Position numbers and translations under genes: made by a program. This document shows positions 3,088-35,967 of a stretch of DNA of 40,690 nucleotides, piece by piece. Each line of letters begins with the position of its first letter. Positions within the stretch are counted from its first letter, which is position 1. The notes under the pieces were generated by a model, which made no database searches, was not told the DNA's origin, and saw only the letters and a list, made by a program, of their open reading frames with translations. The stretch is taken from the IMG/VR virus record IMGVR_UViG_2541047843_000008. One strand, written 5' to 3'. Origin of the DNA: a virus. Taxonomy: Duplodnaviria > Heunggongvirae > Uroviricota > Caudoviricetes.

Positions 3088-3366
3088 ACTTTCTCCTGTT
3101 TACTATCTATAAGCCAGTCAATTATTGATGACTAAACCCGCATAGTAAACCATATATGAATCATTATTGTTCCATATCATATATCTCAATAAAAGTACTA
3201 ATGATTTTACAGAACGAGCCAGCAGAGTGGGGGCAGTTGTACAGGAACCATAGACTTAATTTTGTATTTAATAATGCTATGGTGTAATAAACCTGAACAT
3301 GTATTTAAAATACGTACTGATTCATGATAGAATTCAAAGATAACTTTTCACCAACTCAGTTTTTGA

Positions 3367-6513: not shown

Positions 6514-6617
6514 GTTAAATCTCCAGATAGTCGCAGCACCCGTTGCGCCGCATATCTGGTTATTCTATTACCTGAAAAACCACATATGGATAGATAACCC
6601 ATAAATACGAAAAGATA

Positions 6618-6998: not shown

Positions 6999-7013
6999 TT
7001 ACCTTTTCGGTAA
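6999..7013. promoter_or_regulatory. Operator-like palindrome TTACCTTTTCGGTAA
   Basis: Copy of recurring TTACC-N5-GGTAA palindrome downstream of the small ant-like gene. Confidence 0.45.
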
Positions 7014-7104
7014 ATTTACATCGCACTCCTCTTGTGCCATAGTAATCGGGCACTGGCAAAATCCAGTGCCGGGATTGGTCTCCCGGATTACTAAGTGGCG
7101 CATA

Positions 7105-7127
7105 CCACGCCAGACGTGGTTTTTTTA
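7105..7127 (+). terminator. Rho-independent terminator after the small antirepressor-like gene
   Basis: Stem CCACG / CGTGG with 5-nt loop followed by 8 T. Confidence 0.5.
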
Positions 7128-7284
7128 TGCGTATAGCACAGTCATGCCAGAATTATGGTGGGCTGAATGGGGGTCCGAAAGGACGCCGGTACCACTTAGG
7201 CCGGTAAGACCAACTCCGTTCAGTTCACCACCATCTGATTGGTCTCAGCGGTGGTGATGTAATTCGCTAAGTGGAGACGCCATC

Positions 7285-7941
7285 ATGAACGCTCAACTCA
7301 TCCCCGTATTCAACGGCACTATATCTAACGAAACAGCCCTACTTTGTAATGCCCGCGATCTGCACGCTTTTTTAGGTGTTAAAAAGGTGTTTGCAGCATG
7401 GATTACAAATCGCATATCAGAATACGAATTCATTGAAAATCAAGACTATATTTTGCTTTCCAATTTGGGAAAGCAAACATCTGGTAGAGGCGGCCACAAC
7501 CGCAAAGAGTACCACCTCACCCTTGATACAGCCAAAGAGCTGGCGATGGTCGAGCGTAACGAAAAAGGTCGCCAGGTGCGACGCTACTTCATTGAATGCG
7601 AGAAACGTTTAAGACAACAAGAAACAAAAGTGGAGAAGGTCTTGTCAGGCTTCATGCCCGCCATAATGGAGGCGATCAAGCTGGAAGACAAAAAAGAATA
7701 CAGCGCCCCACTGAAGCCCGGCTACCGCAGCCTGATTCATTCGCCGTCTGGTGTTCTCGGCCTGACGGAGAACTCACTGCTGATGAATCTGCTGAACCAG
7801 TTACAGGACGACGGGCACGACGTATCGGGCGCGGCGGCGGAGCTGACCACCATGTTCTGCTACATCGTCGGTGTGAGCAAATGCCTGCGTGATATCCAGA
7901 CCCACGCGGAGTACATCAACGACAAGGCAGGGTTCTTCTGA
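7285..7941 (+). CDS. Antirepressor-like protein (N-terminal Ant-type domain plus C-terminal domain shared with 6710..6967)
   Basis: N-terminus resembles phage antirepressor N-terminal domains as recalled; SD GGAGA upstream; C-terminal paralogy seen directly. Confidence 0.6.
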
Positions 7942-25642: not shown

Positions 25643-25710
25643 ATCAATGACTCCGTACGCAATTAAATTATTACCAATTTAACCACATATGATTTATTTA
25701 TCGTAGATAG

Positions 25711-26069: not shown

Positions 26070-26146
26070 GTGGCATTAGCTCAGTCGGACAGAGCAACCG
26101 CCTTCTAAGCGGTTGGTCGCAGGTTCGAATCCTGCATGCCACGCCA
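26070..26146 (+). tRNA. tRNA-Arg (anticodon UCU, reads AGA), phage-encoded
   Basis: Cloverleaf read by hand: acceptor GTGGCAT/ATGCCAC, D-arm GCTC..GAGC, anticodon loop CUUCUAA, T-arm GCAGGTTCGAATCCTGC, discriminator G, CCA end. Confidence 0.9.
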
Positions 26147-28955: not shown

Positions 28956-29188
28956 CAAAGTCCATCAAATTCATCGTAAAAACTCTCGTCAAGATACCCT
29001 TCCCATTTACCGCGAATGAAAATTACATCCTCGCCGCAAGGGTGCTGACTGTCGATAACTATATCCCTCCTGGCGCAACCATACTTATGCATGAGAAATT
29101 TAACCTCTTTCGGAAAATTTGCTGAGTTATCTCTCATATCTTCAAGGTCGTAGCGTATTTTTGGCATAACACCTTCGTGACATGTCAC
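28955..29188 (-). CDS. Hypothetical protein
   Basis: 77-aa ORF in nin-like block. Confidence 0.4.
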   Translation of the reverse strand: MTCHEGVMPKIRYDLEDMRDNSANFPKEVKFLMHKYGCARRDIVIDSQHPCGEDVIFIRGKWEGYLDESFYDEFDGL

Positions 29189-29526
29189 ACTATTAATTTC
29201 GTTTCATGCCAGCCTTTGGTCACCCAGCATTGCGAGTCACCATTACACGGGCATGAATTAACTGGAACTCTCTCGCCGCACTTACCGCAACGTTTTCTGC
29301 TGATCGATTTTATACGCCCGCGCACGCGTGCATCATCCTGGCGGATCAGTAACGCTATATACTCACCAAATTCGTAAGGCGCACGCCCGGGGCGACGCGT
29401 GGCACAGTTACGCTCCAGCATTTCAATTTCCTGAGCATCAAGCACAATCTCCAGTTTACGCACACCAGATGCAGCTTGTCTGGCTCTCTGAGCGGCTTTG
29501 CGCTCTGCTGCTGATTTAGCCATCAA
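29185..29526 (-). CDS. Hypothetical Cys-rich (zinc-finger-like) protein
   Basis: CGKCG...CPCNGDSQC cluster; basic N-terminus. Confidence 0.4.
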   Translation of the reverse strand: MMAKSAAERKAAQRARQAASGVRKLEIVLDAQEIEMLERNCATRRPGRAPYEFGEYIALLIRQDDARVRGRIKSISRKRCGKCGERVPVNSCPCNGDSQCWVTKGWHETKLIV

Positions 29527-32361: not shown

Positions 32362-32438
32362 TTACCTCTGAGGTAATTAAAAACCACATAAGACATGAAA
32401 TCAATAGAGTTTACAATATTTTGTTACCTAACAGGTAA
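32362..32438. promoter_or_regulatory. Regulatory hub: two TTACCT-N3-AGGTAA palindromes (about 32362-32376 and 32424-32438) flanking an AACCACATA element
   Basis: Two perfect palindromes about 62 bp apart between the P-like stop and the DUF1064 start. Confidence 0.5.
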
Positions 32439-32475
32439 TTATCGAGGCGTAAAAAAATGCGCTATCGCGCTGGTA

Positions 32476-33252
32476 TTACTTGATAAATCCTGCCGCCTTT
32501 CCCCGCCTGTATTCCTCCATCAGCCACTGCGCCGGTGTTATTCCCCCAAGGGTGGCGGCGTTAGGCATGCACCCGAAACTTCGCCCTGGTGGATGGTAAA
32601 CGTCTCTCCCTGTGTCCGGAGGTGTACTCATGGGCTCTGGCTTTGCCTGTATGCTGATCACCGGATCGGGTATCTGCTGTCCGGAAGCCACCTTTTTCGC
32701 CCAATCATCGAGCAGCCTGCGCGCGTGTTTCTCAACCTCACTCTCGCTAAGCTGGCGCTGATACATTGCACGACGGGTATCACATACGACCCAGTACATA
32801 ACCGGATGCCGCCACGGGAATCTTTCGGGACCACCAGGATATAAACTTTTTTCCTTGCTGTACCGGTGAAACTCCGCCATCACATCGTCAATGGTGACGC
32901 CAAGAACCATCTTGCTGTCTTTGCACCACTTGATGAATTGCCCTGGCGACGGCCAGAACGGAGATTCACTGGCGCGGGCGTGGCGCATACCAGCGTTAAC
33001 CTGTTCCATTGTAGTGATCCCATTCTCCAGAAACGCAAGCATCCATTGCTTACGGAATTCATTAAGTTTGTTCTGCTCCCTTATGGTCGAAACGCTTGCA
33101 GGAAATGCAGCCTGTAACTGGACAAATAGTTCATTGAAAATTCTAGCAACCTGCTCCTTTTTGCCATTGCTGTCACGCCGCTCTTCATGCACAGCAACAC
33201 CATGCTCACGTAAGCGATCGTACTCATTGAGAAGTTCTGGAGTTGATTTCAT
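32476..33252 (-). CDS. Replication protein P-like (DnaB helicase loader)
   Basis: Long colinear similarity to lambda P as recalled: FPAS...NEFRKQW.LAF.ENGITTMEQVNAGMR.AR...PF.PSPGQF..WC. Confidence 0.8.
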   Translation of the reverse strand: MKSTPELLNEYDRLREHGVAVHEERRDSNGKKEQVARIFNELFVQLQAAFPASVSTIREQNKLNEFRKQWMLAFLENGITTMEQVNAGMRHARASESPFWPSPGQFIKWCKDSKMVLGVTIDDVMAEFHRYSKEKSLYPGGPERFPWRHPVMYWVVCDTRRAMYQRQLSESEVEKHARRLLDDWAKKVASGQQIPDPVISIQAKPEPMSTPPDTGRDVYHPPGRSFGCMPNAATLGGITPAQWLMEEYRRGKAAGFIK

Positions 33253-34066
33253 CCCACACCCCTTCTATCCAGTCAGTGTTATTCCAGTCAAGCTCATCGC
33301 TTTTCCCGGCATTTTTTGATTTTCCCCTGATATGATTTACGTGCCTGGCGAATTTTTGTTCCCACTGAACCTGCGTGAACACTTTGCCCTCAGCCATCCA
33401 GTAATCCCGGAATGCAGCAAGTTCAGCAGGTGTAAATTCCGGTTCCGGCAGGGCCGTTCCCCACAGCGCAGCACGCCGCCGAAAATCTGGCGACGGTAGC
33501 CAGCCATCTGTCATCGGAAATTTCCCGATGGGTTCACTCAGGCCATCCAGAAATTCAGGTTCTGCCACCTGCAACGGCGTACTGTTCGCTTCACTGGTCG
33601 GAGCACCCTCGCGCACGTGCGCTATGTGTGGGGTTTTATATATATCTTCCTCTTCCTCTGGTAACTCCTTTTGTAACGCTGTTGGCGTTACTTTTTGCGT
33701 TACTCGTTTTCGATGCTCTGCCACTCTTCTATTCGTAAGTGCACGTTTTTTCGATGATTCTCCATTATGTCGCTCAAAGTTTGGAAGAATTAGTTTGCCG
33801 TCATGATAAGCAAGCCATCCGACGCTAATGAGGGCGTCAGCAAATCCTGTAATAAAAGCGAGTCTATCAAGTACTCCTTTTGTAACGCTGCCAGCGTTAC
33901 CGTCTATTGTTTGCTGGTCAGCCCATGCCCATATACGAACCAGCTTTCCAAGAACAGCATCTGGATCAATACCCAGAATTTCTGCTATCTGAAAAATTTC
34001 AGGTTTATCAGGAGTGATAACTTCAACCTTAATCCAGCTGCTTGCCATAGGTTTCCCCTCTTGCAC
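33224..34066 (-). CDS. Replication initiator (O-like position), with internal origin-like repeats; start may be internal ATG near 34048
   Basis: Directly upstream of and coupled to the P-like gene; contains two copies of a 27-bp palindromic element. Confidence 0.55.
   Translation of the reverse strand: MQEGKPMASSWIKVEVITPDKPEIFQIAEILGIDPDAVLGKLVRIWAWADQQTIDGNAGSVTKGVLDRLAFITGFADALISVGWLAYHDGKLILPNFERHNGESSKKRALTNRRVAEHRKRVTQKVTPTALQKELPEEEEDIYKTPHIAHVREGAPTSEANSTPLQVAEPEFLDGLSEPIGKFPMTDGWLPSPDFRRRAALWGTALPEPEFTPAELAAFRDYWMAEGKVFTQVQWEQKFARHVNHIRGKSKNAGKSDELDWNNTDWIEGVWDEINSRTSQ
33665..33900. repeat. Two copies of a 27-bp element CTCCTTTTGTAACGCTGnnnGCGTTAC (palindrome GTAACGC-N5-GCGTTAC) plus an extra half-site; candidate origin iterons
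   Basis: Copies at about 33665-33691 and 33874-33900 lie in two different reading frames of the same gene; extra GCGTTAC at about 33696-33702. Confidence 0.55.
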
Positions 34067-34241
34067 TCTTTAGTGCACAAGCAAATTCATTACGATGGCG
34101 GTTGGCGCTATTCATTGCACATTCAACACATGTTCCGTTCAGAACATACCTTTCAGAGAGATGGCCGTGACGGCACCGCTTTCCTGTGAAATAGCGATTT
34201 AACCCGGCTTTTGCGGCCTCCATTCTGGTTACTATCTTCAA
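34029..34241 (-). CDS. Small Cys/His-containing protein between Cro-like and O-like genes (cII-position regulator candidate)
   Basis: CRHGH...CVEC motif; non-ATG start in ORF track, internal ATG near 34223. Confidence 0.35.
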   Translation of the reverse strand: MKIVTRMEAAKAGLNRYFTGKRCRHGHLSERYVLNGTCVECAMNSANRHRNEFACALKSARGETYGKQLD

Positions 34242-34340
34242 TTTTTCCGCCCCTTTTTGTTATTGATATTGGCTATTTTGCACAATTGGAAAATTTGATC
34301 AACCAGATTTGGTTTTTTATTACCTTTGAGGTACGAATAG

Positions 34341-34368
34341 ATATGAAAAGACCGCCGGGTGGCGGTCT
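34341..34368 (-). terminator. Rho-independent terminator immediately downstream of the Cro-like gene (tR1-like position)
   Basis: 8-bp stem AGACCGCC / GGCGGTCT with GGGT loop; U-run on the minus-strand side. Confidence 0.5.
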
Positions 34369-34389
34369 ACAGAGGGTTGTAGCTGGATA

Positions 34390-34620
34390 TCATGAGTAGA
34401 AGAAGTATGCCAGTTCTGCTTTTGAGCGCAGCCATTGTCTTGTTTTACAGGCTTTAAAAAGCCCATTCATCAATACCTTACCTGGCATTTTGCGCTTGCC
34501 TGTTAAGTGAGTCTGGATATAGTGACTCGTCGTTCCGGCTTCCTGTGCGAAGGCTTCACGCTCATCCGGAGTAAGTGCAAGCCAGTGCTTTTTGAAATCG
34601 AAATGTCCGTTATCGCTCAT
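34390..34620 (-). CDS. Cro-like HTH regulator
   Basis: 76 aa, HTH-like segment, divergent from the repressor gene across the operator cluster. Confidence 0.55.
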   Translation of the reverse strand: MSDNGHFDFKKHWLALTPDEREAFAQEAGTTSHYIQTHLTGKRKMPGKVLMNGLFKACKTRQWLRSKAELAYFFYS

Positions 34621-34656
34621 AGCTATTGCCTGATATTTATTTCAGATAATAAATAT

Positions 34657-34720
34657 TCACCCATAAGGTAACAAAAATCAAGGATAGTTACCTATGAGGT
34701 GCATTTACCTGTTGGGTAAT
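34657..34720. promoter_or_regulatory. Immunity-region operator cluster: three TTACC-N5-GGTAA-type palindromes between the divergent Cro-like and repressor genes
   Basis: TCACCCATAAGGTAA, TTACCTATGAGGTGC, TTACCTGTTGGGTAA at about 34657-34671, 34688-34702, 34706-34720. Confidence 0.55.
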
Positions 34721-34774: not shown

Positions 34775-35359
34775 ATGAAAAGTATCCAGGACGTCCGCAG
34801 GCAAAATCTCAACGACTTGATCGACCGTGAATTCAATGGTGTTCAGACGCGGATGGCAGAAAAACTTGGAACTCAGGCAAATCTGGTAAACCGCTGGGCT
34901 CTTGGCAAGAAGGTTATCGGCGACCAGGTTGCACGAAAAATTGAAGCTGCCGCCAATAAACCCCGTAACTGGCTTGATATTGATCGTTCGCTTTCTCAGG
35001 AGGGTTTTCAGCCTGTCGGCCCGAGCGATATAGGTCAGCTGGCGGCTCACAATCTGGAACGCTGGATGAGCGAAAGCCGCGACCTTTCAACACAGGGAAA
35101 ACTTCACCGCGCATCCGGCGTCGCCCAGGTGACAATCAGCCGCCTGTTAAACAATGAGGTCAGCGTTTCCATTTCCACCCTGGAGAATGTTGCATCCGCA
35201 TTCGGGCGTCACGGATATGAACTACTGATTCACCCGCACGACCCTGCGACTATCAACTATGACCGCTCACGCTACGCATTGTTACCCGAAACCGAGAAAG
35301 CAAAGATCGAAAGTTACATTGAATTTGTCATCAACCAGAACGAAAAAAGCAAACAATAA
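34775..35359 (+). CDS. Repressor candidate with two XRE-type HTH domains and no LexA-like autocleavage domain
   Basis: HTH-like segments VQTRMAEKLGTQANLVNRWALGKK and LHRASGVAQVTISRLLNNEVSVSISTLENVASAFG; own terminator downstream. Confidence 0.6.
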   Translation: MKSIQDVRRQNLNDLIDREFNGVQTRMAEKLGTQANLVNRWALGKKVIGDQVARKIEAAANKPRNWLDIDRSLSQEGFQPVGPSDIGQLAAHNLERWMSESRDLSTQGKLHRASGVAQVTISRLLNNEVSVSISTLENVASAFGRHGYELLIHPHDPATINYDRSRYALLPETEKAKIESYIEFVINQNEKSKQ

Positions 35360-35380
35360 AACTATATTTTTCAGTAAGTA

Positions 35381-35406
35381 AGCCGCCTCATGGCGGCTTT
35401 TTTATT
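35381..35406 (+). terminator. Rho-independent terminator after repressor gene
   Basis: Stem AGCCGCC / GGCGGCT with 5-nt loop followed by 7 T. Confidence 0.6.
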
Positions 35407-35416
35407 GCCAGATAGA

Positions 35417-35493
35417 TTACCTTACGGGTAATTTTTTTAACTCATATCTATTGACACCAAACCAAATAAGCATAATTATTACCTCAACGGTAA
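35417..35493. promoter_or_regulatory. Early (PL-like) promoter region with TTGACA flanked by two operator palindromes
   Basis: TTACCTTACGGGTAA (about 35417-35431), TTGACA (about 35451-35456), AT-rich -10 candidates, TTACCTCAACGGTAA (about 35479-35493). Confidence 0.55.
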
Positions 35494-35512
35494 CAGACCG
35501 AGGTAACAAGTT

Positions 35513-35665
35513 ATGCAGTGGAAAATCATCAACGGTTGGTACTGCGTTACTGCATGCGGATTCATGAGCTGGAAGTTCCGCACCTTACAGGAAGGCATTA
35601 AGTGGGCTTTCGTCAGCAAAGAAGCTCGCGATGTAGCCAACGATAACGAGATATGGGAGGGCTGA
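35513..35665 (+). CDS. Small 50-aa Trp/Cys-containing ORF, first in early operon (below the ORF-track size cutoff)
   Basis: ATG right after the operator; MQWKIINGWYCVTACGF...; stop overlaps next gene's SD. Confidence 0.3.
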   Translation: MQWKIINGWYCVTACGFMSWKFRTLQEGIKWAFVSKEARDVANDNEIWEG

Positions 35666-35667
35666 TA

Positions 35668-35967
35668 ATGAACGTTAATCAGCAGAAAAATCTTCAAAAA
35701 ATCATGCTGGCATTCGACAAGGACTACCGCCTGTCAGAACAGCTATATGACCGACAAGTTGAACTGATTGAGAGCATCCGACTTCATCAACTGTCCTCAA
35801 CTTTCGACGTTGTAACAGGCAAAGGCGTTCGTCAGGAAGTGCTGGAGGCTGCTAAAGACAGCCCTGAGTTCGAAGAACTGATAGATTCCTACCGGCGCGA
35901 GGCAATGGCAATTATCGCCCGCTGGGATCTGGCGGATCGGATTGATGGGCAGAGGGAAGCGGCATGA
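35668..35967 (+). CDS. Hypothetical early protein upstream of exonuclease (position of Gam/Abc-type anti-nuclease)
   Basis: 100 aa, GGGAGGG SD; function unassigned. Confidence 0.45.
   Translation: MNVNQQKNLQKIMLAFDKDYRLSEQLYDRQVELIESIRLHQLSSTFDVVTGKGVRQEVLEAAKDSPEFEELIDSYRREAMAIIARWDLADRIDGQREAA

Follow-up and report, generated by a model that had tools for sequence, protein, structure and literature searches.

The hairpin that follows the Cro-like gene of this phage probably ends the short RNA made from PR, and the replication genes beyond it probably start from an internal sigma-70 promoter, so that no antitermination factor would be required; judging from the sequence and its relatives, we give this reading a rough probability of 0.55. 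The stretch of DNA that was analyzed (40,690 nt, hereafter the window) is a Uetakevirus genome, that is, a podophage of the phiV10/epsilon15 type and of prophage type. In the proposed arrangement, the PR-cro transcript would end, at least partly, at the hairpin, which in this E. coli lineage would be an intrinsic terminator of moderate efficiency. The Cys/His, O-like and P-like genes would then be transcribed mainly from their own sigma-70 promoter, located 47-94 nt beyond the hairpin, with a start near 34268. Because the U-run of the hairpin is imperfect, the replication genes may in addition receive substantial transcription from PR past the hairpin.

The gene order of the region is that of lambda, flipped (rep-PL / PR-cro-T-x-O-P; Table 1). 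Between 33200 and 35700 the window shares 97.6-98.6% identity with the Escherichia phages HEMP4, vB_EcoP_ZX5 and TL-2011b, and phiV10 is 97% identical to it from 34297 onward. The immunity module occurs in 539 of 5,426 complete E. coli genomes (~10%), and since it is this common and phiV10 serves as a reporter phage, an accurate map of its transcription has practical value. The Cro-like gene is divergent from the repressor gene, with three operators in the gap between them, and ends in a TGA codon (34392..34390). Its product is a homologue of epsilon15 gp39 with 100% identity to phiV10 p41, and a sequence search of the PDB with it gave no relative. Inside the O-like/DnaT-domain gene, the plus strand carries two copies of ACTCCTTTTGTAACGCTG..GCGTTAC (33673-33691 and 33882-33900, 209 bp apart), a sequence with an 8-bp inverted repeat; by analogy with the lambda ori, which lies within O, these copies may be origin iterons. 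At some distance from the early region, isrK (Rfam, 67.7 bits; 7050-7126, plus strand) and a C4 antisense RNA (61.2 bits; 7151-7235, plus strand) are followed directly by an AntA-family antirepressor gene (7285-7941, plus strand) and preceded by an operator (6999-7013); together they form an immI-like control region. Between the portal-side and the terminase-side late genes lies a tRNA gene (Rfam, 73 bits; 26070-26143, plus strand).

Table 1. Positions of the features discussed in the text, numbered along the window.
Feature	Position	Strand	Remarks
Two-HTH repressor gene (rep)	34775..35359	+	homologue of SPC32H Rep, PDB 5D50, E 3.5e-42
Terminator 3' of rep	35380-35399		PL downstream of the terminator
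PL			TTGACA-17-AATTAT; followed by two small ORFs, exonuclease gene, RecT gene
PR and operators OR1-OR3	34646..34719	-	TTGTTA-17-TATTAT at 34674..34646
Cro-like HTH gene, first in PR operon	34390..34620	-	phrog_35 'transcriptional repressor', E 5.6e-13
C-rich, G-poor spacer, stop codon to hairpin	34369..34389	-	possible Rho loading tract
Hairpin AGACCGCC-ACCC-GGCGGTCT	34368..34349	-	8 bp, 6 G-C, tetraloop
U-rich tail TTTCATATCTATTC	34348..34335	-	5 T in first 8
O2', palindrome TTACCTTTGAGGTAC (GTACCTCAAAGGTAA on the minus strand)	34320..34334		one mismatch from TTACC-N5-GGTAA
A-tract and imperfect palindrome CCAAATCTGG	34303..34319	-	adjoins the -35 hexamer
Predicted -35, TTGATC	34297..34302	-	TTGA invariant in relatives
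Predicted -10, CAAAAT	34275..34280	-	16-bp spacer; start expected near 34267-34269
Shine-Dalgarno AAGGGGCGG of Cys/His gene	34255..34247	-	
Cys/His protein gene (70 aa), epsilon15 gp40 family	34029..34241	-	phrog_1081; TTG start
O-like replication initiator gene with DnaT domain	33224..34066	-	PF17948 E 1.6e-18; phrog_2509 E 1.8e-127
Lambda P-like helicase loader gene	32476..33252	-	PF06992 E 5e-56
After-P unit	32362..32470	-	weak hairpin GCGCGATAGCGC and T7; O2 32438..32424; TTGATT-17-TTTAAT; O1 32376..32362; DUF1064 gene
Late-gene copies of CCATATGTGGTT	6578-6589 and 25681-25692		

An earlier note on this DNA had described an 8-bp GC hairpin with a U-run within 25 nt of the Cro-like stop, ahead of the Cys/His and O/P-like genes and in the position of lambda tR1, and both the anatomy and the analogy proved right. 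The hairpin begins 21 nt past the TGA and has a predicted folding energy of -14.5 kcal/mol, and the 101-nt stretch around it folds more stably than 200 of 200 shuffled sequences (z = -4.05). It is real and not new, being already annotated in the near-identical phage phiV10, whose GenBank record (DQ126339.2) labels it a 'putative rho-independent terminator'. Its tail, UUUUCAUAU, gives four U, counting the last U of the stem, and then a C, which makes a real but sub-optimal U-run, an intrinsic terminator being expected to have about 6-8 uninterrupted U directly behind its stem. A rough terminator score was +6.6 for this hairpin; two other terminators that the phage carries reached +23 and +17, and the epsilon15 and Klebsiella homologues about -40 (-39 and -42). 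The pattern of a hairpin plus T-run was found 12 times in 7 kb against 6.9 expected by chance; the hairpin after cro is more than a chance match because it is conserved, with covariation, in 234 related loci. It is not a classical attenuator, since the upstream sequence offers its 5' arm no alternative pairing partner.

These 234 loci, each with a homologue of the Cro-like gene, were collected from phage records, GTDB genomes and IMG/VR and comprise 147 distinct downstream sequences. A GC hairpin occurs at the same place in every lineage (234/234 loci), and its loop sequence is free (ACCC, ATCC, TTCT, GCCT, TCCCC, ACCCCCA and others). MAFFT set the arms of the hairpin out of register between lineages, and the pairs were counted with an anchored script instead. 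Among the 22 distinct stems, the pair next to the core is A-T in 3, G-T in 3 and G-C in 16, and core pair 4 is C-G in 19 and T-G in 3, the latter being a wobble that pairs only in the cro-sense RNA. At core pair 3, G-C has changed to A-T on both sides in a Scandinavium lineage (L016). The compensatory changes and the wobble pairing confined to the cro-sense RNA indicate that the stem is selected at the RNA level. The U-run is present in E. coli, Enterobacter, Buttiauxella, Pseudocitrobacter and Scandinavium and absent from Salmonella (epsilon15, SPN1S), Citrobacter and Klebsiella, whose sequences end in TCCTTCCTGC or TCCTGCCTCTCC. As the epsilon15 and Klebsiella lineages lack it, 'intrinsic terminator' describes particular lineages and not the family as a whole.

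Just downstream of the hairpin and of O2' lie the hexamers of the predicted internal promoter, and of the two routes to the replication genes that had been proposed before, antitermination or a promoter near the downstream operator, it is the promoter that we favor. The pattern TTGAT[C/A]-N15-18-[C/G/A]AAAAT is present in 144 of the 147 distinct intergenic sequences, with a spacing of 16 bp (78 sequences), 17 bp (62), 18 bp (3) or 15 bp (1), and the letters within the spacer vary. Of the three exceptions, two have TTGACC, and the third (L228), with TCAGAT in place of CAAAAT, counts against the promoter. The sole variants of the -35 hexamer, TTGATA and TTGACC, are both closer to TTGACA than TTGATC is; they bring the match to 9 of 12 consensus positions, and in loci that carry them the promoter scan calls the site, next to PR. 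The version found in the window, TTGATC-16-CAAAAT, matches the consensus at 8 of 12 positions, with A at -11, T at -7 and no T at -12, and stays below the threshold of the promoter scan, which counts against an internal promoter. In a rough PWM scan, it ranks 66th of 81,310 positions, and a sister promoter at 32404 ranks 53rd. When diverse relatives are aligned, the invariant islands in the otherwise variable spacer are GGTAA(T/C), CC..T..GG, TTGATC and AAAAT. Moreover, the mosaic joint between the immunity and replication modules falls at 34297, the downstream edge of the -35 hexamer, whether the window is compared with phages of the phiV10 type or with most of the 539 module-carrying E. coli genomes, and CAAAAT stands at the right distance in both types of replication module despite their differing spacer and leader sequences. 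Conserved hexamers with a free spacer are the signature expected of a sigma-70 promoter and would be hard to explain otherwise.

Several other explanations of the sequences around the hexamers were considered and rejected. Dam dependence of the GATC within the -35 hexamer is unlikely because the natural variants TTGATA and TTGACC destroy it, and the TTGATC block, judged by eye, is no match to the IHF consensus WATCAANNNNTTR. On the plus strand, a promoter for which the operator would serve as O1 (TTTTAT ending at 34320) lacks an A at -11, and its only -35 candidate is 14 bp off and absent from phiV10-type sequences. Two antisense promoter-like matches on the plus strand were dismissed as well: the hexamers of the first (34366-34393) are not kept in relatives, as judged by eye from the alignment, and those of the second (34496-34523), inside cro, are not kept at synonymous sites. 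The second match, TTGCCT-16-TATAGT, looks strong (PWM rank 10) and points toward the repressor gene.

The operator-like palindrome beyond the hairpin was likewise confirmed, and it belongs to a family of sites. The window contains 13 matches to TTACC-N5-GGTAA with at most one mismatch, where 0.56 would be expected, and this is the pattern of the three operators between rep and cro and of the two at PL. Operator positions are scattered throughout the genome (6618, 6999, 8014, 25733, 28880, 28898, 32362, 32424, 34320, 34657, 34688, 34705, 35417 and 35479), including sites 5' of the antirepressor region and of the portal, terminase and DUF1064 genes. The mismatch in O2' is a G for T at position 1, and the site is as close to the consensus as OR2. 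From OR2 (GCACCTCATAGGTAA, 34688-34702) it differs at two positions, and a frequent natural variant, GCACCTCAAAGGTAA, at one. Across lineages, only the GGTAA half is invariant. The left half reads GTACC, GCACC, TCACC, ACACC or ATACC and is lost in three lineages (L012, L014 and L016). O2' lies about 59 bp upstream of the predicted start, in the place that O2 takes at PL, and is probably a degenerate form of the upstream operator in an 'O2, promoter, O1' unit. A homologue of SPC32H Rep is encoded nearby, and such a tetrameric repressor could still affect the internal promoter through O2'. No full operator overlaps the predicted -10, which, like the loss of the left half of O2' in those three lineages, counts against our preferred explanation. 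Operators also coincide with translation signals in the window: operator O1 of PL and an extra GAGGTAA half-site form a 13-pair inverted repeat (35476-35509) at the start of the PL transcript that includes the Shine-Dalgarno of the first PL ORF, and the operator at 32362-32376 supplies the Shine-Dalgarno of the DUF1064 gene.

The arrangement after cro is not isolated. Four units consisting of a hairpin with a T-run, 14-19 nt and an operator were found, after rep, after cro, after P and before terS. In the unit after rep, the hairpin is followed by O2, 19 nt, TTGACA, 17 nt and AATTAT, which overlaps O1. The unit after P has the same 19 nt between O2 and the -35, and its TTTAAT overlaps O1; the phiV10 record annotates its hairpin as a terminator too, and its promoter has homologues in epsilon15 and in a Klebsiella phage that the promoter scan calls. 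In the unit ahead of the small terminase gene, the hairpin is followed by two adjacent operators. The last long ORF (at least 90 aa) ahead of that terminator and double operator is a phrog_536 'transcriptional regulator' gene (29188-29526, minus strand) of the epsilon15 gp49 family, which had no Pfam or NCBIfam match and whose product is a candidate late-gene regulator. After cro, the order is hairpin, O2', 17 nt, TTGATC, 16 nt and CAAAAT, and in most lineages TACC, the left half of an O1, is found 3' of CAAAAT. The operators are spaced 62 bp apart in the PL and after-P units, and the corresponding offset in the after-cro unit is 59-60 bp. With this layout, the element after cro resembles the standard early-promoter module in a decayed form. 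Every minus-strand terminator has operators and a promoter-like site downstream, and we read the genome as several 'terminator, operator, promoter' units on one strand, with each gene block started and repressed locally and not through an antitermination cascade.

The alternative that best withstands the evidence, and that we nevertheless consider rather unlikely, is that the hairpin is only a leaky attenuator, a partial terminator that sets the ratio of cro to replication-gene expression, with the replication genes expressed purely by read-through from PR and TTGATC...CAAAAT serving some other end. The terminator of lambda at this position, tR1, is itself leaky. Here, a U-run broken after four U and a barely positive score would fit a partial terminator, the promoter is sub-threshold in the window, and the epsilon15 and Klebsiella lineages, which have no U-run, must still express the same genes. 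What such a reading leaves unexplained is why invariant hexamers should stand 15-18 bp apart around a free spacer, why their natural variants move toward TTGACA, and why CAAAAT is kept across the mosaic joint.

It is less probable still that the hairpin is a pause site or a stem-loop protecting the 3' end within a Rho-dependent terminator, in which case it would be a true analogue of tR1, or a stability element of the cro mRNA, the U-run being a secondary gain in the E. coli lineage. This alternative overlaps with our preferred explanation. In its favor, the stem is retained, with covariation, where the tails of other lineages read UCCUUCCUGC or UCCUGCCUCUCC, and the terminator scan made no call at the post-cro hairpin in epsilon15 or in one Klebsiella phage. 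That lineages without a U-run conserve the hairpin also counts against our preferred explanation, since it shows that intrinsic termination cannot be the only role for which the hairpin is selected. In addition, the tract after the stop is strongly rich in C and poor in G: over 65 nt past the cro stop (34325-34389, minus strand), C exceeds G by 14, a value at the 99.7th percentile for that strand. The ratio of C to G after the stop is 2-3.5 in all lineages except L014, the Salmonella and Klebsiella relatives keep the hairpin inside such a tract, and L014, the only lineage without the bias, has the best U-run. This distribution of C-rich tract and U-run among lineages suggests that Rho contributes, as at lambda tR1. 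On the other hand, C-richness is only a compositional hint, and the hairpin and U-run of the window conform to the usual pattern of an intrinsic terminator. The preferred reading also leaves room for Rho, which may help termination by acting on the C-rich untranslated tract; in the Salmonella and Klebsiella lineages, this tract is the one termination-like feature that remains.

A more elaborate scheme arises from the palindrome that adjoins the -35 hexamer. It reads CCAAATCTGG in the window and CCATATATGG in phage Tyrion, and among 37 representatives its CC..T..GG core shows little or no variation. The related motif CCAWATNYGGTT (core CATATGTGGTT) was found 9 times against 2.8 expected. Copies on the minus strand of the window lie at 3148-3159, 6578-6589, 25681-25692 and 34301-34312, and others in locus L243 at 2987, 24750 and 33751. 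In both the window and epsilon15, the lysis, tailspike, portal and replication genes have copies 45-65 nt upstream, on their own strand, and a conserved phage regulator may act at them. One could imagine that this regulator binds CCAWATNYGG and switches on the internal and late promoters, in an activator cascade that replaces the lambda-type antitermination cascade; its simplest identity would be the Cro-like protein, with its nearly invariant recognition helix GTTSHYIQTHLTG. We regard this scheme as improbable. If it were true, PR would make only the regulator, and the hairpin, whether intrinsic or Rho-assisted, would insulate it.

Antitermination was the other route offered by the earlier note, with the first two PL ORFs (35513..35665 and 35668..35967) as candidate factors, and its observation that no antiterminator is recognizable was borne out: no N-, Q-, nut-, boxA- or put-like element was found. 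Rfam searches, in gathering and E-value modes, returned only isrK, C4 and the tRNA elsewhere in the window and nothing near the hairpin. Strings resembling boxA occur at chance frequency, and none was seen in 34390-34640, in the PR and PL leaders or before the hairpin. With leaders of only about 19 nt at PR and 27 nt at PL and a non-coding gap of 21 nt between the cro stop and the hairpin, there is no room outside coding sequence for nut or for put, a two-stem RNA of ~70 nt. Among 20 early proteins, searches of Pfam, PHROGs and NCBIfam gave no match to N, Q or other antiterminator families. The two candidate ORFs encode neutral or acidic proteins (pI 6.1 and 4.9) with no arginine-rich motif at the N-terminus and no family matches, which speaks against the role proposed for them. 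A strong plus-strand terminator was not found in the PL operon, leaving nothing there to overcome, and the minus-strand terminators each have operators and a promoter-like site behind them. Processive antitermination by such a phage protein or by an RNA element, which would let polymerase read through the hairpin, therefore seems very improbable, even though the position matches that of lambda tR1 and several early ORFs are without known function, and the view that the replication genes need an antiterminator is not upheld.

Compared with known systems, the layout that we favor, local promoters behind terminators, is an ordinary modular one, and its lesson is modest and fits known principles. 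Across cro, the hairpin and O2', the DNA of the nearest relatives, phiV10 and epsilon15, is 97-99% identical to that of the window. For epsilon15, the GenBank record marks scattered repressor sites of the TTACC-N5-GGTAA type 5' of the terminase, portal, tailspike, PL and RuvC-like genes and none after gp39, and both records leave the gap between the cro homologue and the gene that follows it free of annotated promoters and operators. Exactly from the -35 hexamer on, the window and phiV10 differ in their replication modules. The Rep-Ant switch of SPC32H (PDB 5D50) is similar in its homologous repressor, in the presence of an antirepressor gene and in its paired operators, as suits a tetramer that binds two sites, whereas the site after cro is a single, degenerate putative Rep operator. 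The many repressor sites spread across the genome in short intergenic gaps recall the stoperators of mycobacteriophage L5. Stoperators are asymmetric sites that act as elongation blocks; in contrast, the sites in the window are palindromes at promoters, each after a terminator. The phage family appears to run on terminator-separated units that are promoted and repressed locally. Finally, lambda tR1 with N and nutR is alike in having a terminator directly after cro, before the gene in the cII position and the O and P genes, and in having a C-rich tract of the kind found at Rho-dependent sites. Unlike lambda, the window has a hairpin of the intrinsic type with a conserved predicted promoter downstream and shows neither an N-like protein nor nut or boxA, which cautions that a terminator placed after cro is not always evidence for an N-like system.
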